Shown piece by piece: positions 1 to 63,753 of a stretch of 64,000 nt of DNA. The translations under genes and the position numbers were made by a program. The DNA is taken from positions 43,090,001 through 43,154,000 of the forward strand of contig CM126204.1 in assembly GCA_052327205.1 (NCBI GenBank). Direction: 5' to 3'. Every line of letters starts with the position of its first letter. Positions within the stretch are counted from its first letter, which is position 1. Under the pieces are notes generated by a model that did not search any database, had not been told where the DNA came from, and saw only the letters and a program-made list of their open reading frames with translations. Source of the stretch: Somniosus microcephalus. Lineage: Eukaryota.

Positions 1-462
1 GTCTGTATTCCCATCCTAAGATGATGGAAATGGCACAATAAAAGAATGATTTTGTGGATTTTCACAACCTCTCATCAATGATCTTCTCAGTAGATCCACC
101 TTTTCCCTTCTGACATTGACTTTAGTCAGATAGACTCATGGCAGGTCCTGGGAAATTCAAGGCACTCTTGGCCAGTTGGCTTTTAAGTTCTTAGTTCACA
201 CACTCTGCTGCTGAATCAAAGGCTAATGCGACATAATGAAGCTAGTCATTATTTTGGGAGCAGTTCTACTGCTGCAATACCACCCATATAGAGCTAAAGT
301 GAACACTGATGCACAATATTAAGATAAGAAAAGAAAATTGACACCTTTTTCTGCATGAATCTGGGAAGGTCTACCACAGGTCAAGCTATCACCTTGGCAG
401 CCCAGGGTCCCAGTCGTGCCTGAATGTGATTATTTCTCTGGCATTTCAACAATGTGGTGATT

Positions 463-13831: not shown

Positions 13832-16800
13832 TGTAGTGTCCGGGTATCAATAATACTCGGACTGCAGGAGAACAATAAAACAGGTATTTACTGAACAGAG
13901 GGTAACTCAAGACTGAAGTACAGAAGCCTGCTAGGGCTTTTTATACAGATGTGGTCACTGCCGGTACTGCAGTATAAAATCAGTTCTTCTCTTAAAGGTA
14001 CATACACAACAATTCCTCCCCTTTTAGATAAACAGTACATAACATTCATTTAACAACCAAATAATAACTAATTACAATTACAATTTTCTCTATTATATAC
14101 ATCAACTGAAATAATTATTTATAAGTTCAGTCTTTGAGGAGGCTTCCTGATCCTGACTGGATAGCGCCTTTCTCGAGTATCCTGTTCTTGCAGCGGAGTC
14201 GATTCTGGCTCATTGTCATTGGTTGGTTCGTCAGCTTCCAATACCACTGCTTCTGAGGTAGATGCAATCTGTACTTCGGGTTCATTACCAGGTGCACATG
14301 CTCGTGGCATAGGTTTGGCTTGTTCCTGTGACTCTAGAATCTGGTCAGCATGGCGTCTCACGATGCCCTCTCCAACATCCACTGTGTACATTAGTGGCCC
14401 CTGCTGTGTGCATATCGTTCCTGGCTGCCATTTTTCTGTTCGGTAGTCGCGGGCCAAGACTGGTTGCCCTATCTTGAAGCTCCTGGTTGGCTTCTCATTT
14501 ATGTGCTGGAATTGCTTATCCTCAACATCTCGTCTTATGTTTGGTTTGAGCAAATCCAGGCGACATCTTAGCCTTCGGTTGAAGAACATTATGGCTGGAG
14601 CTAGGTTGGTGACTGCATGTGTCGCATTCCGGTAAGCAAACAAGAAATTATCTACCTTGTGTTGTAGTGGTATGTCGTCGTTATACATCGCCTTTATTGC
14701 CTTTTTAAAGGTCTGAACAAACCTCTCAGCCAATCCATTTGTGGCTGGATGGTATGGGGCAGATGTGTAATGTTTCACCCCATTATTCCTCAGAAACCTC
14801 CGGAAATCTTCGGACACAAACTGTGGCCCATTATCGGAGCAAATCTGTTCTGGCAAGCCATTCCTGGTGAAGATGGTCCGTAGGACTGCAATAGTTTTCT
14901 CCGTGGTGGTGGAGGACATTTTGATGACCTCTGGCCATTTCGAATGGGCATCCACGGCGATTAGAAACATTCAGTCCATAAATGGACCAGCAAAATCAAT
15001 GTGTACCCATTGCTATGGAGATGAGGGCCACTCCCATGGGTGTAGAGGGGCCTGTGGTGGTGCATTTTGGACTTTCTGACATCCTGAGCAGCTCTTGGTC
15101 AGGTCCTCGATTTGTTTATCGATTCCCGGCCACCACACTTAAGCCCTGGTTAGGCTTTTCATTTTTACCCCTCCCAGATGACCCTCATGAAGCTCATTGA
15201 GCACTCTGTCTCTCAACTTGGGTGGAATTACCACTCGGGATCCACACATCAAGGTCCCCCGGCACACTGACAGCTGTTCTCTCCTTGGCAAGAATGCTGG
15301 CAACAGTGAGTCGCCATGTGCTGGCCATCCCTTCACCGTCAAATCATAGACCCGAGAGAGTATCGGGTCATTTCGGGTTTCTTTCTCTATACTTGAGTTT
15401 GTAACGGGCAGACATTCGACTATGGTCGCATGGAATATCTCAACAGGGTCCACTGCAGGTGCTTCCTCTACCGTAGGCAACATCTCAACAGGGTCCACTG
15501 CAGGTGCTTCCTCTACCGTAGGCAACGGTAGGCGCGACAGCCCATCAGCATTTCCATGCTGTTTCGTACCCTTGTACTCTATGTCGTACTGATGTGCCCC
15601 TAGAAAAGGTGACCATCTTTGCAGCCGTTGTGCCGTCATCACTGGAACGCCCTACTTTGGGTTAAAAATGGAGACCAGGGCTGATGATCAGTCAGTAGGG
15701 TGAATTTCAGCCCGTGCAGATAGTGATTGAACTTCTTCACCCCCCACACCAGGCTGAGGGCCTCCCTGTCAATCTGGACGTAGTTACGCTCGGCTGAGGT
15801 TAACGAGCGCGACGCAAAGGCTATTGGCCTCTCTGAACCATCAAGGAATTTGTGTGACAGCACCGCTCCAATGCCGTAGGGAGACGCATCACATGCCAAC
15901 CGAATCGGTAGTGTTGGGTTGTAGTGGGCCAATACTTCTTTTGAAGTGATTAGGCATTTACATTTCTGAAAGGCACGCTTACACTCATCACTCCATTTCC
16001 ATGTTACTCCAGTTTGCAGTAGAGCGTTCAGTGGGTGCAGAATTGTAGATAAATTCGGCAAGAACTTATGGTAGTAGTTCACCAACCCAAGAAACGACCT
16101 CAGTTGCGACACATTTTCCGGTGCTGGAGCCTTGACTACAGCCTCAATCTTGTCTGGCGACTTATGCAACCCTTCCTCATCAATCATGTGGCCACAATAC
16201 GAGATTTGTCTCCTGAAGAACTCGCATTTGGGGCGGTTGGCTCGTAGCCCATATTCCTGCAATCTAGTGAGCACCTGCTCCAGGTTGGCAAGGTGTTCAC
16301 TGTCATTTTCGCCCGTAACCAGGATGTCGTCCAAATAACACTGGGTCCCCGGGATCCCTTGCAGGACCGCCCTCTGCCAAATAGCCGGGGCTGATGCTAC
16401 CCCGAATACCAGTCGATTGTACTGGTAAAGGCCTTTGTGAGTGTTTATCGTGAGGTATTTCCTAGATGCTTCTTCCACCTCCATTTGTAGATACGCTTGG
16501 GCCAGATCAATCTTCGTAAAGCGTTTCCCTCCAGATAGTGAGGCGAAAATATCTTCTATCCGTGGAAGAGGATATTGTACTGTGTGCAGGACTGGGTTCA
16601 CAGTTACCTTGAAGTCCCTACAGATGCGAACCTTCTTCGGCTCCCCAGGCGTGCTGCTCAATGATTTCTTCATTACAGGAACGATGGGTGTGGCCCACTC
16701 ACTCCAGTCCACCTTGGACAGCACACCTGAATGCTCCAGACTCTCCAGTTCTGCTTCAACGGCTAGGCGGATCGTGTACGGTACCGGTCTGGCCTTAAAA

Positions 16801-18669
16801 ATTTTTGGGTTTGCGTTATCTTCGATTTTTATCATTGCCTTTACTCCTTTTAGAGTCCCAAGTCCTTGTTGGAACACCTCTTTCGTTTCAGTTAGAACTT
16901 TTGACAGTCATCCAGGTGTGACGTCATCACCCTTTTTGTCAGTCACAGTTAGTGTCTGAATGGAATGCCAATCCAATTGTATTTTTCGGATCCATTCACG
17001 TCCCAATAATGGTGGTCCTCCATCTTGTAGTATACATAGATACAGTTTCTGTGTTTCCTTGCTGTTGTATTTAACTGGCACCCTTATTTTTCCTCTGGGG
17101 TAGACTTTTTGCCCCGTGTATGTCTTCAATACAATGGACGTGTCCTTTAAGGGTATGTGTGAGAATAGCCGCTCATAGTCTCGTCGATTCATGACAGTTA
17201 GGGCTGATCCTGTATCCAATTCCATCTTTACTTGGGACCCTGCTATCATGAGGGTGACCCAAATGGTTCGGTGATCCTCCTTTGCGATCATGTTGTGTAA
17301 CTTTAGACAACTTAGTCTCCTGCTCCCAGCATCATTATCACTCTCCTGATCTTCCGAACTACTGTCTGTCATTTTTTTTACTTTCTTGTACTTTTCCTTA
17401 GTAGTTGTTGTAGTGTTGGTTTTCTGTTGTATTTCCGCAGCTCCCCGTGCTGCTGCTTCGTAGGATACTGCCACGCTGAAAGCCTGTTCTAGCGTCAGGT
17501 CCTTTTCCGAAAGTAGTAGTTTCTGGTTTCCTTCACTCTGGAGCCCGCAGACAAACTTATCCCGTAAGGTGTCTGCCAGTCCTGCTCCGAACTGGCAGTG
17601 CTTCGATAACTTGCGTAGTTCCGTAAGATAGTCAGCATTGTTCTCATCTTTGTGCTGGTTTCTTTTATGGAACTTGAATCTTTCTGCTATCAGCAGCGGT
17701 GTAGGGTTTAGGTGTTCCTGTAAGATATTAACAATCTCTTCAAAACTTTTCTCCATTGGTTTAGCTGGGGTAATTAAATTCCGCAATAGGCCGTACGTTC
17801 TCGCGCCCATCAAATTTAATAATACCGACGCCTTCTTTCCATTGGCCACCTCGTTGGCATTGCAGTACACTTCAATTCTTTCCACATACGTGGTCCAGTC
17901 TTCTACCTCATTGTCGAAAGCAGTGATACTGCCACTCTTCGGCATCTTGGGTGATTTAAAATGGCGCCTCCCGCGCTTTTTCTTCTTCCCCAATGGAATA
18001 AAATGGCGCCTCCCACGCTTTTCCTTCTTCCCCTTGCTGCCACGCTGCTCCTAGCGTTCTACAGGGTAATGGCGGCAACCCGTGGCTTCGGCGCGTCTCA
18101 CTTTTCCTTCCCCGCGTTCTATCCTCTCCACGCTGCCCGGTTCTTGAGCACCGACTGCGCCCTGTGCGCTCCACCCTCTTTCTCTCTCTTCCTCCCGACG
18201 ACGCTGCACGGCCCCTTTGCAGAGCCGCTCGATCGAGCCCGAGCCCGCCGCAGTCCAGAAGGGTCAGCGCACTACCTGCTACCAGCACGACTTGCTGGAA
18301 CACCTCGACTGGGGAGCCAGGCCCAGCTCTCCACAGCCTCCCCTGCAACTCTCCGATTGATCCCTGGGCAGTTGCCCGTGGTCGACGCCCGCCGTTCTGA
18401 CTTCGACCTCCAAGAAGCTTCTCTTCAGGGAAAAGATCCCCGTGAGGTGATGCAGTACTGCAGGTGAGTTCAAACCTGCCCGTCGCCAGTGTAGTGTCCG
18501 GGTATCAATAATACTCGGACTGCAGGAGAACAATAAAACAGGTATTTACTGAACAGAGGGTAACTCAAGACTAAAGTACAGAAGCCTGCTAGGGCTTTTT
18601 ATACAGGTGTGGTCACTGCCGGTACTGCAGTATAAAATCAGTTCCTCTCTTAAAGGTACATACACAACA
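13832..18669 (-). mobile_element. Ty3/Gypsy (Mag-like) LTR retrotransposon, near full length, frameshifted
   Basis: 180-bp LTRs at 13832-14011 and 18490-18669 (TG..CA, 3 differences by eye); target-site duplication (TSD) ATTAC; PBS TGGCGACG; PPT AAGGGGAGGA. Confidence 0.96.
14119..17946 (-). pseudogene. Gag-protease-RT-RNase H-integrase polyprotein, broken into several ORFs
   Basis: Gag (ERFKFHKRNQ), protease (LDTGS), RT (YLDD), RNase H (DASPYGIGAVL), integrase (SDNGPQF, HPATNGLAERFV). Confidence 0.93.
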
Positions 18670-18872
18670 ATTACAAGGATGAAAAGAGTGACGAGACGAT
18701 AGCCACTTTGTCTTGATCCATGAATATTAATGCAGAGAGAGAGAAAAAAGAACAAATCTCATTTGGTGTCCAGTGTGGCGTAATGCTGACGTCAGTGGTG
18801 CTGCGTGGTAAATATCCTCATCAGTAGTGAACTGGTAGTGATATTGTAACAAGTTTTTCAATACTATCAGTG

Positions 18873-27807: not shown

Positions 27808-30555
27808 ATGCCTACCTTGAAGAAGTTCTGCTCTTCTCCCTGACGGGGGTTCCGTTTATCTATTCAGCCTTGTTCATCTTCATTGCTTTCAGTTTCCCTT
27901 CTCGTTTTTGACCAGGTATCTGCCAAGACTCGGTTTCACAGCCACATCTCTTTCCTCAGTAACTGTCTCCGGTTCAGAGTTATTCCACGTGGATTCCAAC
28001 TAAACTTCCACCCTTCATGTTTTGGATCCACCCAGGATTACAAATATCTCCTCGATATTCATCGTTCTTCAAACTACTGCTCTCGCCGCATCTTGAGATC
28101 CACGCTCAACGCCATGCGCCGCCACATGAACAACCTCGACCTCTCTCTTCAGCACCGACGCACTCTATTTCAATGCTGTCCGGGTCCACAGTTCCATTTC
28201 ATCCTTCGACTCATCCGACGCTTCAACAAAAAACTTTTTTTCTTCCTTTCTGATGTCAAGGATCGCAAGCTTCATCAACTCGTGGACACCAACGCCCCCC
28301 CAGAACCTTCTTCCCCGTTACTTTCCTCCGATCCGATCCCTTCTTCCAATCTCACCCCCTGCCGTGTTTTCACTATCCCCTCTGACCTTCCCCTCTCTGA
28401 CCGCGAACGTTCAGTCTTCAACAAAGGCCTGAGCTTCATCCCCTTACGCCCCCATCTGAATGAATTTCGAGCTCGGCACGATGCTGAGCTCTTCTTCTGT
28501 TGCCTTCGTCTCCGTGCCCACTTCTTTGGCCAGGAGTCTTCCTCCCGCACGGTTGATCCTTTCTCCCGCTTTCTAAATTCTCGTTCTACTTGGACCCCTC
28601 CCTCTGGCCTTCTACCCTCTCTAGATCTTTTCATTGCTAACTGCCGACATGACATCGGCCGTCTCCATTTCTCTGCTCCCCTCACTCACTCCAACCTACC
28701 TTCCTCTGAACTTGCAGCACTCCGTTCTCTCCGATCCAACCCTAACATTATCATTAAACCTGCTGATAAGGGTGGTGCTGTTGTTGTTTGGTGAACCGAC
28801 CTCTACCGTGCAGAAGCTGAACGCCAACTCTCCAACACCTCCTCCTACCTCCGCCTGGACCATGACCCCACTAGCAAACATCAAGCCATTGTTTCCAAGT
28901 GTGTCACTGACCTCATCTCCTCCGGAGATCTTCCCTCCATGGCCGCCAACCTCATAGTCCCCCAACCCCGCACAGCCCACTTCTACCTCCTTCCCAAGAT
29001 CCACAAACAGGACTACCCTGGTAGACCCATCGTTTCAGCCTGTTCTTGCCCCACGGAACTTATCTCTTCCTATCTCGACTCTATTTTTTCTCCCCTTGTC
29101 CAATCTCTTCCCACCTACATTCGCGACACTTCCGACGCCCTCCGTCACTTTAACAGTTTCCAGTTTCCTGGCCCCAACCATCTCCTTTTCACTATGGACG
29201 TCCAATCCCTCTGCACCTCCATCCCCCACCAGGACGGCCTTCAGGCGCTCCGTTTCTTCCTTGAACAGAGGCCCAACCAGTCCCCATCCACCACCACCCT
29301 CCTCCGCCTGGCTGAACTTGTTTTCACATTGAACAACTTCTCCTTTGACTCCACTCACTTCCTCCAAATTAAAGGTGTTGCTATGGGAACCCGCATGGGC
29401 CCTAGCTATGCCTGCCTGTTCATGGGATATGTGGAACATTCTTTGTTCCAGTCCTACTCAGGTCCCCTCCCTCACCTCTTTTTCCGGTACATCGATAACT
29501 GTATTGGTGCCGTTTCCTGCTCTCGCCCTGAACTGGATAAGTTCATTCACTTTACTTCCAATTTCCACCCTGCCCTCACCTTCACATGGTTCATCTCCGA
29601 CTCTTCCCTTCCCTTCCTTGACTTCTCCATCTCCATTTCTGGCAATCGGCTTTCAACAAACATCCACTACAAGCCCACCGACTCCCACAGCTACCTGGAC
29701 TACACTTCCTCCCACCCCACTTCCTGTAAGGACTCTATTCCATTCTCCCAGTTTCTCCGTCTCCGCTGCGTCTGTTCTGACGATGCCACCTTCCATACCA
29801 GTGCTTCTGACATGTCTTCCTTTTTCCTCAACCGAGGATTCCCCTCTACCGTGGTTGACACAGCCCTTGACCGTGTCCGTTCTATTTCCCACACTTCTGC
29901 TCTCACCCCTGCCCCTCCCTCCCAGAACCATGATAGGGTTCCCCTTGTCCTCAACTTTCACCCCACCAGCCTCCACATTCAATGGATCATCCTCCGCCAT
30001 TTCCGCCACCTCCAACGTGATCCCACCACCAAACACATCTTCCACTCACCTCCCCTTTCAGCATTCCGAAGGGACCGCTCCCTCCGCGACACCCTAGTCC
30101 ACTCCTCAATCACCCCCAACAGCCCTGCTCCTTCACCATGCACCTTCCCGTGCAAGCGCAGGAGATGCAACACATGCCCTTTTACCTCCTCCCTTCCCAC
30201 TGTCCAGGGCCCCAAACACCCCTTCCAGGTGAAACAGCGATTTACTTGTACTTCTTGCAATTTAATATACTGTATTCGCTGCTCCCGATGTGGTCTCCTC
30301 TACATTGGGGAGACCAAACGCAGATTGGGCGACCGCTTTGCGGAACACCTCCGTTCAGTCCGTACGGGTGACCCTGAGCTTCCGGTCGCCTGTCACTTTA
30401 ATTCACCGCTTCACTCACACTCTGATCTCTCTGTCCTCGGGCTATTGCATTGTTCCAATGAAGCTCAACGTAAGCTCGAGGAACAGCACCTCATCTTTCG
30501 ATTAGGCACTTTGCAGCCTGCCGGACTCAACATTGAGTTCAACAATTTCAGATAA
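27808..30555 (+). pseudogene. Penelope ORF: RT + Cys-rich linker + GIY-YIG endonuclease
   Basis: One frame with two in-frame TGA (27841, 28792; probably CGA>TGA); KPADKG, GVAMGTRMGP, YIDN (expected YIDD), CKRRRCNTC, LIYCIRC..LYIGET. Confidence 0.93.
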
Positions 30556-30732
30556 TTATCCCTGCCCCCATTTTTCATGCAGTATGACTTTTGCCATTCC
30601 CATTTGCAACATTTTATCTTTCCTGCCTCTTACAAAAGTACAGGATGTTCTTTCTACTCCTTCCTCCCCTCCTAACCGCCCCCCCCCCGTCTCTGCACCT
30701 GCTTAATATCTGTTACAGCTCCAGCTTCTTCC

Positions 30733-30769
30733 AGTTCTGATGAAGGGTCCCAGACCTGAAACGTTAACT
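30733..30769 (+). ncRNA. Minimal hammerhead ribozyme motif (downstream pseudo-LTR)
   Basis: Identical to 27636-27672. Confidence 0.82.
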
Positions 30770-31666
30770 CTGTTTCTCTCTCCACGGATGCTGCCTGGCC
30801 TGCTGAGTATTTCCAGCATTTTCTGTTGTTATTTCTGGCATTTTAACAACCTGCTGCTGAAGGACGAGCGGTTCCGGGATTCGTTTTGTCGGTTCTGGGC
30901 CGACTGGAGAAGGAAGCTAGGGGGCTTTCCCTCCTTGAGGCTACGGTGGGATGTGGGCAAGGCTCACATCTGTCTCTTCTGTCAGGAGTACGCAAGGGGT
31001 TCGACCAAGAGGCGGGAGGCCCAGGTCGGGCGGTTGGAGAGGGAGGTGCTCGACCTGGAGTCCCGTCTCGGTCAAGTTGTCGAGGACTCGGCCCTGCGGA
31101 AGGTGTATGAAGAGAAGAAGGGCACATTGAAGGACCTGCAGCTCGTTGGGTCCCGAGGCGCGTACGTGAGGTCACGGATCCAGTTCCTCCGGGACCTGGA
31201 CCGCGGTTCCCCCTTCTTCTACTCGCTGGAAAAAAGACGGGGTCCGTAAGCAGCTCTTGGGGCTGCTGGCCGACGACTGATCTCTGGTCTCGGATCCGGA
31301 GGGGATCAGCGTGGAGACCCAGCCCTATTATGGGGCTCTGTTCTCTCCGGATCTGTCCAGCGAGGATGCGCGCAGAGTTTTGTGGGAAGACTTGCCGAAG
31401 ATCGGCCCGGAGAGCGCCGAAAATCTGGACGCTCCGCTAAGCTTGGCGGAGCTGATCGGCGCCTTCGGCCAGCTCTCGAGGGGAAAGTCCCCGGGGCTGG
31501 ACGGGCTGACCGTGGAGTTCCACAGGGCATTCTGGGACTACACGCGGGTCCTGGGGGAAAGTTTGGCGACCGGGGAGATGCCCCTCTCTTGTCATTGTCC
31601 TGCTGCCCAAGAAGGGCGATCTCCGCCTATTAAAAAACTCGCACCCGGTCTCCCTCCTCAGCACAG

Positions 31667-32024
31667 TGTGATGAAATATGCCATTCATCAGGCACTCTGT
31701 ATTCTCTGTGTTTGATTGTGCCTGTGACTGTGACAAGCAGGGGAGCCTAGTTTCAGTTTCATTTCCTTACCTGTATTGTATTGTGTGTAGGGCTCCGCCC
31801 ATACCTGGCCCCTACTTAAGCAGGCCCCAGCGTGTCTCACAGGCAGTACAGCAGATCTCTGGATGAGAGACACTTCTCCACTGTGTATTACTTTCTGAGT
31901 TAATAGAAGCCTTGCTTTGCTCCGTTAACGTTGAGTCTCGGATTCATTGAGGCACATCAATTTTATTAACTCAGAAAGTAATACACAGTGGAGAAGTGTC
32001 TCTCATCCAGAGATCTGCTGTACT
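31667..32024 (+). mobile_element. Single Gypsy LTR (31667-31959) followed by an inverted copy of its own R region
   Basis: TGTG..ATCA ends; TATA-like TACTTAAG at 31813; 31961-32024 is the reverse complement of 31845-31908 (63/64); interrupts Tx1 RT with no TSD. Confidence 0.85.
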
Positions 32025-34849
32025 TTTTTGCCACGGCCATGTCTGCCCGCCATGGCACCGTGCTGGCCCACATGATCCACCCCGACCAGTCCTACACGGT
32101 CCCGGGCTGGACCATCCACGACAATATCCATCTGGTCCGGGACCTGGTCCACCATTCCCAGAGGGCTGGTCTGTCGGTCGCCTTCCTTTCCCTGGATCAG
32201 GAGAAGGCGTTTGACAGGGTGGATCACGAGTATCTTTTCGGAACTCTGCGTGCATGCGGGTTCGGGATGCATTTCGTCGCCCGGATCTGATTGATGTATG
32301 CCGCCGCGAAGTGTCTGATAAAAGTTAACGGGTCTTTGACGGCGCCCCTTCGGTTCGGGAGAGGAATGCGTCAGGGATGCCCCATGTCCGGTCAGTTATA
32401 TGCCATCTGCGTGGAGCCTTTCCTGCGCCTCTTGCGGAAGAGGTTGTCGGGACTGGCTCTGCAAGGGCCGGGCATGGAGGTCGTCCTCTCGGCTTACGCT
32501 GATGACATGCTCCTCACGGTCACGGATCCCGTCGACTTGCGGAGGATGCGGGAATACCAGCAGATTTACTTGAACGCATCCTCCGCCAGGATCAACTGGG
32601 AGAAATGTTCTGGACTCCTGGTGGGCCAGTGGCGGGTGGACTCCCTGCCGGAGGAGTTCAGGCCTTTCGCCTGGAGCTCCACGCACCTCCTCTACTTGGG
32701 AGACTACATTAGCCCCGCCGAGGACGCCTGGCCGGCGAACTGGCAAGAGCTGGAGGCCAAAGTCACTGCTCACCTGGACGCTAGACAGGACTGCTCCGAG
32801 TGTTCTAAACCAGCTGGTGGCTGCCATGTTGTGGTACTGGTTGGTCACTTTGATCCCTCCCCCTGTATTTGTCGCCAAGATGCAGAAGAAGCTCATCAAC
32901 TTCTTCTGGGACAAAAGGAAGCACTGGGTCTCTGCCGCGGTTCTGAGTCTCCTGCTTAGGGAGGGCGGTCAGGCGCTGGTGTGCCTTCACACCCGGGCGG
33001 CGACTTTCCGTCTTCGGACGCTGCAGAGATACCTGTACATCAAGAATCCTCCTCGATGGTGTGCGTTGGCGACGTATTTCTTCCGTCAGCTGCACGGCCT
33101 CAATTACGACATGCAGCTCCTGTTTGTGAAAGTGGGCGGTACACGTGCCTGCCTGCGGGAGCTGCCTGTCTTCTACCAGGAACAGCTATGGGCCTGGAAC
33201 AGTGTTGCCTCCAGGTGGAGTCCTCCCCTGTCAGGAGTGGCGGCTGTCCTTCAGGAGCTTCTGCTCAGGAATCCGCACCTCCACGACCACCGGCTCAGGT
33301 GGCTGGTGGAGGGCAGGGCTGTGCATGGTAGGGTGACTAGAATCAGGGACCTGCTCGATGGCGGAGGAGCGGGCTGGATGGCGCCAGAAGAGCTGGCGCA
33401 GCGCCTGCCCTCCACCAACGTCAGCCTCTTGGCCAAAGCCATCGAGTCGCTGAAAGCAGAATTGGGCCCTGACTCCACTAGGTGTATCGAGGAGGCTCAA
33501 GCATGTCGGGCGATCCCGTCCGAACTGACCCCCGTTCGGACAGAATTCCTCATCGGCGCGCGGCCCCGAAACTCTTCTCGGGAACCGGCACCTCACAACT
33601 TGAGCCGTCTCGGTGAAATACCTTCAGTGCGGAGGCGGAGGTTCCCAATGGAGGGCTCTCTATGCGGGAGTCCTCCCCTTTTCTATTGGGGACTTGGCCT
33701 GGTGGGTGTTGCATGGAGCAGTCCCGTGCAATAAAATGTTAAGTAGGTTCACGGACTCCCAGGCCGCCTGCCTCTTTTGTGGCCTAGAGGAGTCCATGTT
33801 TCATGTTTATATAGAATGTCAGAGGTTGCAGCCCCTGTTCCATTACTTGAAGGGGCTGCTCCTTGATTTTTGGCTGCACTTCAGTCCCACGCTCCTGATC
33901 TTCGGTCACCCGATGCGGAGGGGAGCGGGCAGGTCGGAGGACCTCCTCGTAGGACTGCTTCTGGGCCTGGCCAAAGTGGCCATTAACAAGTCCACGCAGC
34001 GGGTGGTCGAGGGGGTCGTTCGGCCCGATTGCCTGCCTCTCTTCTGCGGCTATGTTCACGCCCAGGTGGCCCTGGAGATGGAGCACGCGGTGTCCGCCGG
34101 CACACTCAAGGCCTTCCGCGACCAGTGGTCGCCGCGGGGACTGGAGTGCATCATCACCCCGGCAAACCAAATTTTAATTTAATTTGTTAAGTTTTATTTA
34201 AAATTCCATTAATTTACAGTCAATTGGTTCTAACCAAAAGAGCACCCCAGCTGTGATCAGTTGTTTCAGCACGAAATAAAGATGGGACCTTCCTGCTGAA
34301 TGTGGCTCAGTACCATTTATCAGCGGAGGCAGAGGGAGTGTTGGTGATGAGTTTTAATAATCGATCACAAATGGTCAATATAATCTGTACCAAAGGAGTT
34401 AAACACAAAGCAGATGCTGGCTCTCATAAGTGCATTTTTTGAATACAAATTAAATACAATATTAATTAAAATGAATAGTCTTGTACAGCATATAGAACAT
34501 TAATTATACATGCAAATGTTTGGGTAATAACACATTATAACTTGCATTTGATTATGATCTTTGCAGTACACGTATCCTCTGAGCACCACTTGAATACAAA
34601 GGTAATTTAGGTAATTACATCAAGTACCTTTTGATGTGCTGCTCAAATCTTCACAGTGCACAATTCTGTCCCTTGTCACTTGGCATCATTATGTGTGCAG
34701 CGCGCTAACCATAAGATGAAAATTCATGTGTTATGCAGTTATTGCTGGAAGCTACCTGATAGCATGGCGTTGTTAGTAAAGTTGAATATTCAGCAAGTTC
34801 AGCTTCGAGCGTGGCGACGTTTAAGTGGGGCCCTCCAGCTGATTAAGGC

Positions 34850-43975: not shown

Positions 43976-44829
43976 TGGCTGGTTTCACACCCGATTGGCG
44001 CCCAAGTGGAACATTTCCCCCCACCACTCGTCCTCCATCCCAAGAGTTTTACAAATCAGTGCTAGCAGTAAATTAGATTCAGTCCCTCAAAGTTTCTGAA
44101 TTCAATTTTCAAGTGATGTTAACTGGTGCAAAGTATATGTTTACAGTCCATCGGAGAAATATATCCCTAAAGCCCTTTAGTACGTAAAATACAATCTCAT
44201 ACTCTCATATTTGCTGTAATTAAAGTACTGCAAATACTGATTGGTGCCAAAGCACAAATACATTAATGGTAATCAAGTAAACATTTGAATAGTTAAATGT
44301 GTCTCTTGTGTCCATTCCTTTTCCATATTGTTGATGTTCCACATTAAGAAAGTTACAGGCTTTGATAAATATTGTAACACAGCTGTTGCTACCAGATATA
44401 AATCAAGGACAGCAGACACATTTTGGATTCCTCATGCAGGATTTATTAAACATGAAAGCTGATGTGATATCAGTAATCCAAAACAATTAGATTTTTATCA
44501 TAACTCCAGTTACGCTGCGGTTACTCTTCCTAATGTTCAGCCTTAACGTGAGCTGGCAAGCTGCCTTCTGTGTCCAGATTTGGCTATTACCCACAAGATT
44601 TCCATCAAGACTTCCATCATCCCACCATCATAATTCCGTACACCCAGTTCCAGTGCAGTGTAACCCAGCTCCCCGAAATGGTTGAGAAGTCTTCCAGATT
44701 ATCTCACTGCAGCTCATTGAGAGCAGTGCCTTCAGTACTGCTAGCTATTCCCTTATTTGTGGAGCTTTCTAGACCCACATCTCTTGCACTCACAGGCAGT
44801 TACATACAGCAAAATAACCAGTTTACTTA

Positions 44830-45054
44830 AATAAAAACAGAAAATGCTGGAGATACTCAGCAGGTCAGGCAGCGTATGTGAAGAGAGAAACAGAGTTAAC
44901 GTTTCAGGTCAATGACCTTTCGTCAAACGAAAGGTCATCGACCTGAAACGTTAACTCTGTTTCTCTCTTCATAGACGCTGCCTGACCTGCTGAGTATCTC
45001 CAGCATTTTCTGTTTTTATTTCAGATTTCCAGCATCTGCAGTATTTTCTTTTTG
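44830..45054. mobile_element. Inverted (palindromic) Penelope pseudo-LTR pair
   Basis: About 94-bp arms 44830-44923 and 44927-45020; 15-bp TSD TAACCAGTTTACTTA. Confidence 0.92.
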
Positions 45055-57177: not shown

Positions 57178-58631
57178 GCATAGTGGTTATTTGTGAAATT
57201 GCCTGAATCGTTTTTGATTCCGTTAACAAAATTTAACTATATCCTCGCCGTAAATCCCCATTTTGGTGTAAACCGCTTTACAACTCTCTGTACTGTCTTA
57301 TGAGGTTTTATGTTAACAAATGTAAAAATGAAAAGCACACAAGTGTCCAAAAGATTAATTGGTCAGCTAACCCCCGTCATGTAAAGAGCTTGAATAATAG
57401 CAAATCAAGCGAAGGACCTTGACAGTATTAGCACAGAAGTGTCCACAATGACCCTATCAGCTCAGCAACAGAACTCATTGTTGGCTGCCACTAGACCAAT
57501 TTGTTGAAGATATTCTGGCGTTTATGATTCGGCTGTAAACATGAAATAGGTTGAAGTCGCTTCTGGGTGATATTGCTCTGTACCTTTACAAACACTGTAA
57601 ATTGGTCTAGGAATACATTGTTGTTCATATCCCTGTACCTGAATGCCTTTGACTCTTGTTTCAAAGATTTTGCTGTTGGCAAAATATGTGAGCTACCCTC
57701 TCACTAACTTACACTAAAGGCCCGATTTTAACACCCCCGTGCCCGAGGCGAATGGGACATGCCAGGGGTATAAATATCGGCAGCGTGGCACTCGCCTTGT
57801 CCACGCCACACTTGCGCCCTGTGCCATTTTTGACTGGTGCATTTTGGGCAACGTGCAAGGCCCTCGCCCCAGGAGGCCTCATTGACATGCAAAAGTCATG
57901 GCCGAGTGACGTCACTCAGACCCCGGCATTGTTTTAACCCCAGGTTGTGTGATCTGCACACGTGCTAATCGCACCAGGGGAAGCTAACTTGCAGGGGACT
58001 GACATCATCATAGTCTAATAGAAATGGGTGGGTTATTGATTCTGCTGTCAGATAAAGGTCTCCTGCTACAGCAAGCTAAATCGGCAGGGAGCTCGTCCCA
58101 CACATTCTGCATTATCTACTAATAAAAACAGAAAATGCTGGAAATACTCAGCAGGTCAGGCAGCAGCTGTAGAGAGAGAAACAGAGTTAACGTTTCAGGT
58201 CGATGACCCTTCGTCAGAACTGGAAAAGGTTGTTAAGCAAGTGTAGGGGCAGGGAAAGGGGGGAGGGGAGGAAAGAACAAAAGGGAAGGTCTGTGATAGG
58301 GTGGAAGGCAGGAGAGATTAAAAGACAAAAGGGACGATGGTGCAAGGCAAAAGGAGATGTGATACGCTTATCAATTACTTCATAAAAGGTGATGAGTCGA
58401 AGAAGAGATGATGAGTCGAAAGAAGAGATGAATAAGGCTTTTATTAGCTAAGAAGAGACCATGCTTCTTCGTGAGTGACTGAACAAGTCTGAACGAAACC
58501 CACACAGTGGTGGGTGGAGTCAGCTGAGGCATGCCTCCATACACAGCGCCACCCAGAGGTGGCAATATACAATACAGTGGTTTACCACATTCACCCCTTG
58601 TTTAATGTGAAGTCCGGCGGGGTGAAGGGTA

Positions 58632-61010
58632 CTACAAGTTAAATCTATCAGGAGGCCTTGTCTGACGTCCTGATCGTCGTGGTGGCGGCGGTGGTGTTAC
58701 AGCATCCGACGTCGGGTCTGGTGTCTGGGTGGTTGGCGAAGATTCCTGGGGCTTTGGCATGCCGTCTGCAAGGGTTGGGTTGGGAGGGGTGGTGGGGGAT
58801 AACAGTGGTAAGGGGGATAACGGTGGTAAGGGGGATAACGGTGGTAATTCAGGGGTACCCGAGGGTGCGAGATCTCGTATGGAGACCGTGTCCTCCCGCC
58901 CGTCTGGGTATGTCACCCAGGCATACTGGGGGTTGGCGTGTAGGAGGTGCACCCGCTCGACCAGGGGGTCCGTTTTATGCGTCCTCACGTGCCTCCGCAG
59001 TAGGACGGGCCCAGGAGAAGTCAACCATGCCGGTAGCGAGGTTCCCGATGTAGACTTCCGGGGGAAAACGAACATTTTCTCATGAGGGGTCGCATTAGTG
59101 GCAGTACAAAGCAGTGACCGAATGGAGTGGAGCGCTGCAGGGAGGACCTCCTGCCAGCGGGAGGTCGGAAGGCCCTTAGATTTTAGTGCTAAGAGGACTG
59201 CCTTCCAAACCGTCGCGTTCTCCCTTTCCACCTGGCCGTTCCCCCGGGGGTTGTAACTGGTGGTCCTGCTCGTGGCGATACCTCTTGTTAGCAGGTACTG
59301 CTGAAGTTCGTCGCTCATGAACGATGAGCCCCTGTCGCTATGTATATAGCTGGGGAACCCGAACAGAGCGAAGATGTCATTCAGACACTTGATGACCGTG
59401 GTACTGGTCATGTCTGGGCAAGGGATGGCAAAGGGGAAACGGGAGTACTCATCAACTATGTTGAGGAAGTACACATTGCGGTCAGCGGAGGGGAGGGGCC
59501 CTTTAAAATCGACGCTCAGGCGTTCGAAGGGGCGGGTGGCCTTGATCAGGCTTGCTCTGTCCGGCCTATAGAAGTGCGGTTTGCACTCGGCGCAGATTTG
59601 GCAGCTCTTGGTCATGGTCCTGACCTCCTCGATGGAGTAGGGCAGGTTACGGGATTTGATAAAATGGAAAAACCTGGTGACCCCCGGGTGGCAGAGGTCA
59701 TTGTGGAGGGACTGCAGCCTATCACTCTGCGCGTTGGCGCATGTACCACGTGATAGGGCATCTGGGGGCTCATTGAGTTTCCCTGGCCGATACAAGATAT
59801 CATAATTGTAGGTGGAGAGTTCGATTCTCCACCTCAAGATCTTGTCGTTCTTGATTTTACCCCTCTGCTTATTATTAAACATAAAAGCTACTGAACGCTG
59901 GTCAGTGAGCAGGGTAAATCGTTTCCCGGCCAGGTAATGCCTCCAGTGACGCACCGCTTCTACAATAGCCTGGGCCTCCTTTTCGACGGAGGAGTGTCTC
60001 GTCTCGGGGCCCTGGAGGGTCCTTGAGAAAAAGGCCACGGGTCTGCCCGCCTGGTTAAGGGTCGCGGCTAGGGCGAAGTCGGAGGCATCGCTCTCCACTT
60101 GGAAGGGGATGGACTCATCCACCGCGTGCATTGCGGCCTTCGCGATATCGTTCTTGATAAGAGTGAAGGCTGCACACGCCTCTGGTGTCAGGGGGAAGGA
60201 GGTGGCTTTGATGAGGGGCCTGGCTTTGTCTGCATAGTGGGGCACCCACTGGGCGTAGTAGGAGAAAAACCCCAGGCATCTCTTCAGTGCTTTTTGGCAG
60301 TGGGGAAGGGGTAGCTCCATTAGGGGGCGCATTCTGTCGGGGTCGGGCCCGATGACTCCGTTCTCCACCACGCAGCCGAGGATGGCCAGGCGCTTGGTGT
60401 GAAACATACATTTTTCCTTATTGTACGTTAGGTTCAGCCGTTGGGCCGTACGGAGGAAATTTGCTAGATTAACGTCGTGGTCCTGCTGGTCGTGGCCGCA
60501 GATGGTGACGTTATCCAAATAGGGGAAGGTTGCCCGCAGCGCGTTCTGGTCAACCATTCGGTCCATCTCCCTTTGGAAGACCGAAACCCCGTTGGTGACG
60601 CCGAAGGGGACCCTAAGGAAGTGGTAGAGGCGGCCGTTTGCCTCGAAGGCAGTATACTGGCGGTCCTCATGGCGGATGGGCAGCTGGTGGTACGCTGACT
60701 TAAGGTCGATGGTGGAGAATACTTTGTATTGCGCAATCTGATTGACCATATCAGATATGCGAGGGAGGGGGTACGCGTCCAGCTGGGTGTACCGGTTTAT
60801 GGTTTGGCTGTAGTCGATTACCATGCGGCGTTTTGCAGTGGTTTTAACGACTACAACCTGGGCTCGCCAGGGGCTAGTGCTACCTTCGATAATGCCCTCC
60901 TTCAAGAGCCGCTCCACCTCAGAGCTGATAAAAGCTCTGTCCCCGGCACTGTACCGCCTGCTTTTGGTAGCGATGGGTTTACAGTCGCGGGTGAGGTTAG
61001 CGAACAGGGG
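58632..61010 (-). CDS. pol: Pol: RT, RNase H, integrase (continues from the gag-pro frame via a -1 shift)
   Basis: IDLKSAYHQ, YLDN, ESDASDFALAA, HHCC zinc finger, DFKGP..SDRG..NGQVER; no internal stops. Confidence 0.9.
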   Translation of the reverse strand, partial: PLFANLTRDCKPIATKSRRYSAGDRAFISSEVERLLKEGIIEGSTSPWRAQVVVVKTTAKRRMVIDYSQTINRYTQLDAYPLPRISDMVNQIAQYKVFSTIDLKSAYHQLPIRHEDRQYTAFEANGRLYHFLRVPFGVTNGVSVFQREMDRMVDQNALRATFPYLDNVTICGHDQQDHDVNLANFLRTAQRLNLTYNKEKCMFHTKRLAILGCVVENGVIGPDPDRMRPLMELPLPHCQKALKRCLGFFSYYAQWVPHYADKARPLIKATSFPLTPEACAAFTLIKNDIAKAAMHAVDESIPFQVESDASDFALAATLNQAGRPVAFFSRTLQGPETRHSSVEKEAQAIVEAVRHWRHYLAGKRFTLLTDQRSVAFMFNNKQRGKIKNDKILRWRIELSTYNYDILYRPGKLNEPPDALSRGTCANAQSDRLQSLHNDLCHPGVTRFFHFIKSRNLPYSIEEVRTMTKSCQICAECKPHFYRPDRASLIKATRPFERLSVDFKGPLPSADRNVYFLNIVDEYSRFPFAIPCPDMTSTTVIKCLNDIFALFGFPSYIHSDRGSSFMSDELQQYLLTRGIATSRTTSYNPRGNGQVERENATVWKAVLLALKSKGLPTSRWQEVLPAALHSIRSLLCTATNATPHEKMFVFPRKSTSGTSLPAWLTSPGPVLLRRHVRTHKTDPLVERVHLLHANPQYAWVTYPDGREDTVSIRDLAPSGTPELPPLSPLPPLSPLPLLSPTTPPNPTLADGMPKPQESSPTTQTPDPTSDAVTPPPPPRRSGRQTRPPDRFNL

Positions 61011-62461
61011 AGGGGGGGGACTTTTAATGTGGAAAGGCTGCAGGTGGTTTGCAGCGGGCGATTTAAAAGTTGTTGGTTGCAGACTGTGAGTGGGGGGAGG
61101 GGTCCACCGTATGCTAGTGTGACACTCTTAAGGTGGCACTGAAAATCCAACCCTAGCAGGACGGCAGCGCAAAGACGGGGCAGGACTAGCAGTTTAAATT
61201 TTTGATATTCAGTGCCCCCTACTGACAGGGTCACCACACAGTAGCCGCTGATGTCCATTGACTGGGACTTGGACGCCATAGAAATGCGATGGTGCGTTGG
61301 CAGAATCGTGAGGGAGTGGCTACGTACCGTGTCGGGGTGGACGAAACTCTCTGTGCTCCCGCTGTCGATCAGGCAACTGGTGGCGCGGCCGTTTACCGCG
61401 ATATCCATCATGGAGCTGGATAGATGGTGAGGGAGGGCTTGATCCAGCGTCACGGAGGCCAGTATGTGGCTTAGTGAGTCACTATAGTCATCCGCCGAGA
61501 CGGTGGTCGGTTCCGGTGACGAAATGGCGGTTGAGTGCGTTGGATACGATGGCGGCGGATGCCATGCGGCCGGGGGTACACAAAATGGCGGATAAGATGG
61601 CTGCTCCCACGGCCCGCACGCTGCGCTGCTGGCTGGCTTCCCCTTGCAGGCGTTAGCGTAATGGCCTTTCTTCCCGCAGCCCGAGCAGGTAGCTGTCTTA
61701 GCTGGGCAGTGCGCTCTGGGATGTTTTAACTGGCCACAGAAATAGCATTTTTGGGCCTGGTTACTGGGCATCGAAGCAGTTCTTACCGGAGGCTGCTGTC
61801 TCGGTTGGGTCGCTGCAGCGGTTGGTGCCGGGGGCGGCGGTCCCGTGTCCCACGGTTTCGATTGCCATGTCTCGGCGCCGTTACGGGGGTATGCCTCGAG
61901 GTTTCGGTGGGCCTCCTCTAACGAGAGCGCAAGGGCAATGGCCGTCTTCAGGTCGGGTTCCTTGCTTTCTAGCAGTCTCTGCCGGGTGTGGTCTGACTGG
62001 AGGCCCCTGACGAAGGCATCACAGGCGAGTCCCTGCGCGTGCTCCACAGCCGTTACCGCTTTACAATCGCAGTCTCTGCAGAGTGCCAGTAGCGCCCGTG
62101 CAAATGCCCCTACCGATTCTCCCGGTTGCTGCCTGCGGGATCCCAAGAGGTGTCGGGCGTAAATTGTGTTCACTGGGCGCGTATATTGCCCTTTTAGTAG
62201 CTCGAGGGCCGCCACGTACGTATTAGAGTCCCGGATTAGCATATATACTTGATGGCTCACCTGGGCGGTCAAAATTTTCAGTTTGTGATCCTCCTCTGTA
62301 ACCTGTGAGATTGCGAGGAAGGATTCAAAGCAGCTCAGCCAGTGTTCAAACTTGGCTGATGCACCCACATCTTGAGGGTCGAGGTCCAGGCGTGGTGGTC
62401 TGAGGGCTCTCAGCAATGTCTGCTGTATCCGTTGCTGTTGTTGCTCCTCAGGTGTCGCCAT
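60902..62461 (-). CDS. gag: Gag (two zinc knuckles) + aspartic protease
   Basis: CYFCGQLKHPRAHC and CSGCGKKGHYANAC; LIDSGSTESF; ATG about 22 nt after the 5' LTR. Confidence 0.9.
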   Translation of the reverse strand: MATPEEQQQQRIQQTLLRALRPPRLDLDPQDVGASAKFEHWLSCFESFLAISQVTEEDHKLKILTAQVSHQVYMLIRDSNTYVAALELLKGQYTRPVNTIYARHLLGSRRQQPGESVGAFARALLALCRDCDCKAVTAVEHAQGLACDAFVRGLQSDHTRQRLLESKEPDLKTAIALALSLEEAHRNLEAYPRNGAETWQSKPWDTGPPPPAPTAAATQPRQQPPVRTASMPSNQAQKCYFCGQLKHPRAHCPAKTATCSGCGKKGHYANACKGKPASSAACGPWEQPSYPPFCVPPAAWHPPPSYPTHSTAISSPEPTTVSADDYSDSLSHILASVTLDQALPHHLSSSMMDIAVNGRATSCLIDSGSTESFVHPDTVRSHSLTILPTHHRISMASKSQSMDISGYCVVTLSVGGTEYQKFKLLVLPRLCAAVLLGLDFQCHLKSVTLAYGGPLPPLTVCNQQLLNRPLQTTCSLSTLKVPPLPCSLTSPATVNPSLPKAGGTVPGTELLSALRWSGS

Positions 62462-62468
62462 TTAACTT

Positions 62469-62481
62469 TTAGCTAATAAAA
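62469..62481 (-). promoter_or_regulatory. Putative self-primer binding site
   Basis: Element-strand TTTTATTAGCTAA is the exact complement of TTAGCTAATAAAA in the LTR (62562-62574). Confidence 0.75.
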
Positions 62482-63753
62482 TTGATACGCTTATCAATTA
62501 CTTCATAAAAGGTGATGAGTCGAAGAAGAGATGATGAGTCGAAAGAAGAGATGAATAAGGCTTTTATTAGCTAAGAAGAGACCATGCTTCTTCGTGAGTG
62601 ACTGAACAAGTCTGAACGAAACCCACACAGTGGTGGGTGGAGTCAGCTGAGGCATGCCTCCATACACAGCGCCACCCAGAGGTGGCAATATACAATACAG
62701 TGGTTTACCACAAGATGGTAATGGGACACTGAGTATTTCCAGCATTTTCTGTTTTTGTTTCAGATTTCCAGCATCCGCAGCATTTTGCTTCTGCATTATC
62801 TACTAATCAGATCTCAGCGGCACCCAGGTGGCCTACAGAGACTTACATCAGATGTCAAATATAAGGGGGCAATTGGCACTGGTTCTCCCAGGACAGGAAT
62901 GGTAATGTGAAAGTGCCTTAACTAGACCAGTGGGCCTCACCAAATTGCAGTTATGTAGAATGTTAAATTCAAATGTGAGGGGGAACAACAAGATTATACA
63001 AAACTTTATGGTTATGGTGTGTATGTTCAGCATTGTCTTCATGCCATCTTTGTTGAGCAAACTGCATCTGTTTTGAAAGTAAAAGCCTCATTCCCCTGTA
63101 TTACACTTCACCTTCTGACATTCAAAGACCTCCTTGCGGTTACTCCTCGTGTTTGCTCCAGAACAAAGGTGCTTCATTTGCAAAACAAAGGGAGCCCATT
63201 GTTTGCTTAATAACTGCCAGAAGAAAAGACTGAAGAATGGTCACCTCTGCAGTGCCAGCACTATTTGTTCATGCAGGGAGTAGAGTCAAATGTGAGGCTA
63301 ACTGAACAGGAAAAGTTCAAGAAGCACACTGCACTCAAAACGTAAGGTGAGATACAAGAGTATGCTGATATTGGTTTTGTGCTGCATAACTGGGCAAGAG
63401 ATGTGAAGTGTTCCTTCATGTAAGTGTGAAGCTGGATTGTCTGATTAGTTGTGCTTGATAATTGTGTGTAATCAATCAGGAAAAGGGGTGGAAAACCATT
63501 ATGCCAGGTGTCTGCTCACAGAAATACATGGAGGTTACAGCATGGAAACAAACCTTTTGGCCCAACCACTCCGTGTTGGCGTTTACCCTCTGTGTTGATT
63601 TGTATGTGGGTTCAATGACGACACATTCATGAAAGAGAATGTCTTTTTATCTAAAGTATGTTCAACTCAGTTAACAGCATTACAGGAGACACCATCTTAG
63701 AGATCCATCTAAAACTAAACTAAAACTAAACTGCTTATCTCTCACATGCCCTC

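Follow-up and report, generated by a model that had tools for sequence, protein, structure and literature searches.

To our knowledge, self-priming of reverse transcription has been proven only for Tf1-type elements, with a primer of 11 nt. Over-extended plus-strand strong-stop DNA that has read through a tRNA primer is known as well, as is the capture of Ty1 cDNA at chromosomal breaks. According to the available portions of the published reports, Tf1, Tf2 and Tj1 of the Tf1/sushi group use no tRNA, and their primer binding site (PBS) pairs with the 5' RNA of the element itself (PMC7175516, PMC10085805, PMC11042837); about 50% of Tf1 cDNA keeps a copy of the primer, and Tf1 also inserts independently of its integrase (PMC11042837). 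Self-priming has further been predicted from sequence for the plant Tcn1 and TAR (Houba, Osr-1) lineages, whose PBS is complementary to the 5' LTR; these are other clades, and the accessible part of that source gives neither an anchoring on AAUAAA nor the 5' end of the primer (PMC6317226). For Skipper of Dictyostelium, which has a polypyrimidine PBS, the available section of the report proposes non-canonical priming and describes no complementary region in the LTR (PMC5006619).

Here we describe an insert in the genome of the shark Somniosus microcephalus, located in a 64,000-nt stretch of DNA (referred to as the window), in which a Ty3/Gypsy LTR is followed by a reverse copy of part of its own R region. 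We consider it likely that the insert is a dead-end product of reverse transcription, formed when plus-strand synthesis continued through a self-primer consisting of the 5' 54-64 nt of the element's RNA and ending at the poly(A) hexamer. As in the Tf1 group, the PBS is self-pairing and a primer copy can persist on the cDNA. The Tf1 primer comprises the first 11 nt and is fully paired, whereas the putative primer of the insert's clade would be 54-64 nt long, be paired over its last 13-17 nt and end at the poly(A) hexamer; pairing involves a segment situated about 40-50 nt downstream of the predicted start, not the first ~11 nt as in the Tf1/sushi group. Like Skipper, as described in the available section, the clade of the insert has no TGG PBS, but unlike Skipper its LTR contains a complementary region. 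The insert resembles over-extended strong-stop DNA and captured cDNA in that an LTR is followed by a reverse primer copy and inserted without a target site duplication (TSD). It differs from tRNA read-through in that the copied primer would be the element's own leader, and in that most such products were integrated by integrase with TSDs and form a mappable series. In the literature searched, neither AAUAAA-anchored self-priming nor fossils of this kind have been described for this clade, an annotation in Repbase or Dfam being possible, and the available part of PMC3601003 does not describe AAUAAA-anchored self-priming.

An LTR followed by an inverted copy of its R region

In the initial annotation a 293-bp LTR was followed by a single A and an arm of 64 nt, the reverse complement of an LTR segment, and recomputation from the sequence reproduced this architecture, with 63 of 64 arm positions matching (Table 1). 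The arm (31961-32024) is the reverse complement of 31845-31908 and the match stops sharply at both sides. Its sole mismatch is due to a private A>G exchange at 31906, where relatives read AATAAAA, and no other inverted repeat longer than 24 nt is present within 30000-34000. The order U3-R-U5 followed by a reverse copy is that of plus-strand strong-stop DNA, the copied RNA probably being the primer. The TATA-like TACTTAAG at 31813-31820 lies 32 nt before 31845, and the 51-nt extension at 31974-32024 is missing from normal copies of the family.

Table 1. Coordinates of the insert and its flanks, and of a further clade member elsewhere in the window.
Feature	Position	Strand	Basis
Complete 293-bp LTR (TGTG..ATCA) of a young Ty3/Gypsy family	31667..31959	+	98-99% identity to relatives' LTRs
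TATA-like TACTTAAG, putative function; sister families show TATAAAGG there	31813..31820	+	sequence and family comparison
Predicted 5' 64 nt of the RNA, putative self-primer	31845..31908	+	arm template; end points of related arms
13-nt PBS-pairing segment; contains the poly(A) hexamer 31902-31907	31896..31908	+	family comparison, folds
Remainder of R plus U5; loop separating the two arms	31909..31959	+	sequence, folds
One-base spacer (A) between LTR and PBS; present in every sampled family	31960..31960	+	family comparison
Normal PBS of the family, 13 nt	31961..31973	+	identical 13 nt in 1,069 normal junctions
51-nt extension past the PBS, R reverse-copied back to the predicted start site	31974..32024	+	arm alignment
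Left flank, older Tx1-type LINE reverse-transcriptase region meeting the exact LTR start	31500..31666	+	junction alignment
Right flank, continuation of the Tx1 RT	32025..32330	+	comparison with Tx1 relatives
Element of a second family in this clade, with identical 230-bp LTRs and 5-bp TSD	58360..62712	-	sequence

Around the insert (31667-32024) no TSD was found, and comparison with 11 intact Tx1 relatives upheld the earlier statement that there is none. The same comparison confirmed a loss of target sequence from the Tx1 RT, the size of which had been given as about 10 bp and is in fact 8-9 bp. Both features agree with the proposed capture of cDNA at a break, but the LTR begins with an exact TG, without the two extra bases on the PPT side, which suggests that a one-ended integrase event suits the left end at least as well. 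The exact extended junction of the window was found at 12 genomic places, as compared to 0 for the control. We discount an assembly artefact, since independent loci with TSDs show the same junction and its boundary is a biological one.

Two other structures were seen in the window. A 199-bp self-complementary stretch (94%) at 44826-45024 is made up of a common short repeat present twice in inverted orientation. A further Gypsy element lies at 13832-18672 on the minus strand; its LTRs measure 183 bp, its PBS is of the usual TGG type, and its RT motif suggests that it may be Mag-like.

The element family and its clade

When the 6.4-Gb genome was searched for the family, the window LTR was matched by all 40 candidates scored, out of 1,450, and it is 98-99% identical to the LTRs of 4.35-4.38-kb elements bearing 5-bp TSDs. 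Five of six fetched copies are 4.35-4.38 kb long and have two LTRs, a PPT and a 5-bp TSD (mismatched in one case). At 26 of 30 loci the LTR is followed by an A, a 13-14-nt complement of LTR positions 230-242 and gag, and the remaining four, including that of the window, bear a longer arm. The expectation that full-length relatives carry ATTTTATTAAC and then gag, without the long arm, was thereby borne out, at these 26 loci as well as in 1,069 exact junctions.

In the polyprotein Pfam places the protease at 327-415, RT at 521-658, RNase H at 722-847 and the integrase at 938-1034, so that gag, protease, RT, RNase H and integrase follow each other between the LTRs in the order of Ty3/Gypsy elements; TG..CA LTRs, a PPT and a short TSD are likewise present. 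A Pfam scan of the polyprotein at E<=0.001 returned no match to a chromodomain, and the integrase of the present clade differs in this respect from that of the Tf1/sushi group. The window LTR would accordingly come from a Ty3/Gypsy clade outside the chromoviruses, which accounts for about 30,000 junctions in this genome. Among named homologs, those of rays and sharks rank first (about 79% over RT-RNase H), and those of nematode, anemone and insects come next. The second family in the window has a 13-nt PBS that is also complementary to its own R, with letters differing from those of the first family.

The PBS pairs with the R region of the same element

The architecture AATAAAA-N45-75-TCAATTTTATT occurs at 29,943 genomic sites, as compared to 93 for the control. 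From the first 100 matches listed, 20 copies were picked for differing U5 types, and in all 20 the PBS pairs with R over 13-17 nt, except that one copy, itself an extended arm, pairs over 37 nt. Instead of the TGG that starts a tRNA-type PBS, all 20 start with TTTTATT and vary with R, and the PBS is complementary to the element's own 5' RNA, as in the Tf1/sushi group. Among 13 distinct variants pairing was found at 78 of 78 positions left unconstrained by the search pattern, whereas a shuffle control that ignores relatedness gave a mean of 51 and a maximum of 67 in 20,000 shuffles. Compensatory changes were present in 13 of 13 variants, with every column showing at least two pair types. The R:PBS helix had a pairing probability of 0.93-0.99 in 12 predicted leaders, folded without a shuffle control.

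A metagenome scan yielded 11 loci with relatives, two of them with a readable PBS. Read by eye, one of these pairs over 14 nt with ATTAAA/TTTAAT replacing AATAAA and the other over 9 nt, and both retain the one-base spacer and the GCC after the hexamer. No relatives were found in viral contigs.

Extended arms are recurrent and were mostly formed before integration

Exact counts gave 12 extended and 1,069 normal junctions for the window family, and in another group 335 extended junctions stood against 7,465 normal ones. Two junction searches returned 100 and 335 extended junctions (435), from which 140 were examined (the first 30 of each set plus the next 40 listed, with two tandem neighbours and one repeated locus excluded). 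An intact upstream TATA-bearing LTR was present in 91 cases, the arm was the intact part in 38, and 11 were unclassified, including two that end at 54 nt and were kept out of the counts. The 91 junctions with intact LTR comprise 71 short arms, 4 arms ending in U3, 10 ending at the LTR start and 6 running through the PPT, so that 16 of 91 reach the LTR start or pass beyond it. Short arms joined, like that of the window, to sequence unlike any element copy compared were rare (4-5/71).

Of the aberrant copies in the second family, 12 of 15 are flanked by 5-bp TSDs; among the arms that reach the LTR start, the same holds for 6 of 10. As most aberrant copies have integrase ends and TSDs, they were formed before integration. 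In the copies with inverted U5 (38/140, plus the 11 unclassified) the ends are spread through U5, several having no matching reference; nine lie within -11 to +5 of the cut site and none at the start site.

Two recurrent forms were observed besides. Small palindromic insertions, in which an LTR is followed by an arm back to the LTR start, have two U3 ends and a 5-bp TSD (L191, L192, L200, L285, L311, L318, L201), and in other copies an LTR plus short arm rejoins the last 5-14 nt of U5, which restores an integrase end with TSD (L233, L235, L241, L242, L246, L272, L286, L195).

Short arms rarely end beyond the predicted transcription start site

End points were determined for 70 independent short arms of TATA-containing families (one duplicate removed). 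Nineteen end at TATA+28 to +32, 49 at +33 to +67 and only 2 at +1 to +27, and the edge test (2 ends upstream vs 50 downstream, 27 nt each) gave p=3e-13. The peak at TATA+28..32 has p=5e-4, or 0.01 once all windows are scanned. A plus-sense template that stops ~30 nt downstream of a TATA box is most easily understood as having reached the 5' end of an RNA, so that the arm template would have stopped at the predicted transcription start (31844 or 31845 in the window family). Reverse transcriptases add a C in dependence on the cap. The next base is a C in 13 of 17 peak arms vs 11 of 25 arms elsewhere (p=0.037), most such Cs also matching the acceptor, which fits copying of the cap.

In the lineage of the window 16 other independent arms were counted, with tandem duplicates merged and one indel arm as well as six arms of a subfamily with a different initiator left out. 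Three end at 64-65 nt (p=0.01), ten earlier and three beyond, at 86, 89 and 91 nt; in a sister subfamily two arms end 6 and 11 nt beyond their own initiator candidate. Other LTRs with inverted R and the same end point, as sought on the basis of the initial annotation, therefore exist and pile up there, but most arms end earlier and some run further. Likewise, the idea that the fossil locates both the transcription start and the primer's 3' terminus has to be modified, as it is the distribution of ends and not a single fossil that marks the start, and the PBS that fixes the 3' junction. Reads and contigs of a related organism (2 RNA runs, 2 contig sets) that align to the 5' 660 nt of a normal copy are of mixed subfamilies and both strands, and the one apparent RNA beginning near the predicted start lies 5 nt upstream of it (8/25), within an indel cluster, and carries no weight either way. 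At TATA+43 there are six independent arm ends, of which five follow an identical GATC, a possible pause or cleavage site in the primer.

The same sequence, boundary and cap-derived C would result if a short R piece of about 13-17 nt were the primer and the long arms arose from plus-strand DNA that hopped onto another RNA, still unprimed, at its 5' R and was extended to the cap, in which case the fossils would map the start site, not the length of the primer. Some long arms do derive from a subfamily other than that of the adjoining LTR. Yet in an intact RNA the 5' R is predicted to be PBS-paired and the 3' R to be free, so that hops should prefer the 3' R and enter U3, whereas the arms that stop in U3 or continue past the PPT number just 10 of 91. 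The arms also resemble their own LTR more than other copies, with a divergence of 1.0% (15/1,561; biased low by arm-end calling and possible conversion between arms) vs 4.3%. On this evidence we regard hopping as unlikely.

Long arms and other sources of the arms

Further from the evidence is priming by the entire genomic RNA, whose 3' terminus, cut back to the poly(A) hexamer, would act as the primer end. It would account for the 13 arms that read U3, PPT and 3' internal sequence, which make up 6 of 91 arms in TATA-containing families and 7 of 15 in the TATA-less second family, and for one arm that runs back to just past the PBS. At L153 (G000:C15:77341600-77348500) the LTR is followed by the whole element, reverse-copied from the 3' R to internal position 16, and then by other DNA, with no TSD found at this locus. 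Priming by the RNA 3' end predicts no boundary at the start site, in contrast to the 50 ends downstream and 2 upstream, and as a general explanation it is very improbable. It may be a minor route, or the route of TATA-less families, whose arms through the PPT need another primer source or an extra jump. With a 5'-end self-primer, a fully primer-copied plus strand, which would end like a minus-strand strong stop, could jump to the RNA 3' end, or could fold back on its own U3 and halt at the LTR start.

Repair of the genome, by which a break near the PBS after insertion would have folded back through the 13-bp inverted repeat and been elongated by a polymerase of the host, hardly comes into question. 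The missing TSD and small deletion of the window copy, the 4-5 of 71 short arms similarly joined and a few rearrangements near simple inversions between repeats would suit it, but a template of DNA does not stop at TATA+30, the majority of aberrant copies bear fresh integrase ends at rebuilt termini, with TSDs, and rates of 1-4% are found in very young families. Equally implausible is that the R-PBS helix serves only to hide the 5' poly(A) signal while another cellular RNA primes: the helix always spans AAUAAA, its downstream partner exists only for the 5' LTR and hiding may well coexist with priming, but the partner begins one base past the LTR end, where a primer must end, has no TGG, follows R in 13 differing PBS sequences, which no single cellular RNA could do, and the arms carry on in R sequence beyond the PBS.

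A model for self-priming by the 5' leader

The proposal of a strong-stop cDNA carrying a copy of its self-primer is supported, with the qualifications given above, by the lack of a tRNA site, the PBS-R pairing, the extended arms at hundreds of loci and the bounded arm ends. In the self-priming model the 5' leader would fold such that the PBS pairs with the final 13-17 nt preceding A|GCC (or A|ACC). Cleavage of the RNA at this point, for which RNase H is the probable nuclease as in Tf1, would leave a primer of 54-64 nt that is paired at its 3' end only. This primer would stay on the minus strand and normally be trimmed to about the length of the PBS. In 1-4% of surviving copies plus-strand synthesis would proceed further into the primer, as far as the cap, and the resulting overhang may re-anneal via microhomology with internal sequence, the U5 tip, its own U3 or the RNA 3' end. 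For the window copy the primer would have been read to its end; integrase likely made the joint at U3 and host repair that at the overhang, with 8-9 bp being lost. The same R:PBS helix would hide the 5' poly(A) signal.

More tentatively, and at somewhat less than even odds, a widespread animal Gypsy clade may have evolved self-priming apart from Tf1, with one helix that hides the poly(A) signal, sets the cut after AAUAAA and leaves a capped leader of 54-64 nt. The primer that the clade appears to use would be five-fold longer than that of Tf1 and tied to the poly(A) signal; the named homologs of this clade extend from sharks to anemones, nematodes and insects. If the model is true, strand transfer relies only on the short stretch from the hexamer to the poly(A) site, the PBS is re-copied from R in every cycle, and hundreds of read-through fossils map start sites and primer ends for each family without RNA data. 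Such elements would presumably depend neither on the host tRNA supply nor be subject to silencing by tRNA fragments. The model specifies exactly where the cut falls (A|GCC or A|ACC) and where transcription starts, and it predicts a short capped RNA. What the window locus adds is the end-point evidence from read-through arms, and integrated read-through products would give the primer 5' end and the start site for any LTR family from the genome alone.

Further observations on the two families

The second-family element in the window (58360-62712, minus strand) is very young and has no recognisable TATA box. Eight copies of this family (L136, L138, L142, L144-L147, L149) have in common a PBS of 17 instead of 13 nt, which owes its added length to bases complementary to R and is an inherited read-through, and seven other copies bear an 18-bp palindromic PBS. 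Family members also occur in tandem or local amplification with spacings of 4.1, 7-8 and 20-21 kb, the amplified sites being G000:C2:27200227-27208454, C35:75274722-75290478 and C9:148015265-148056901.
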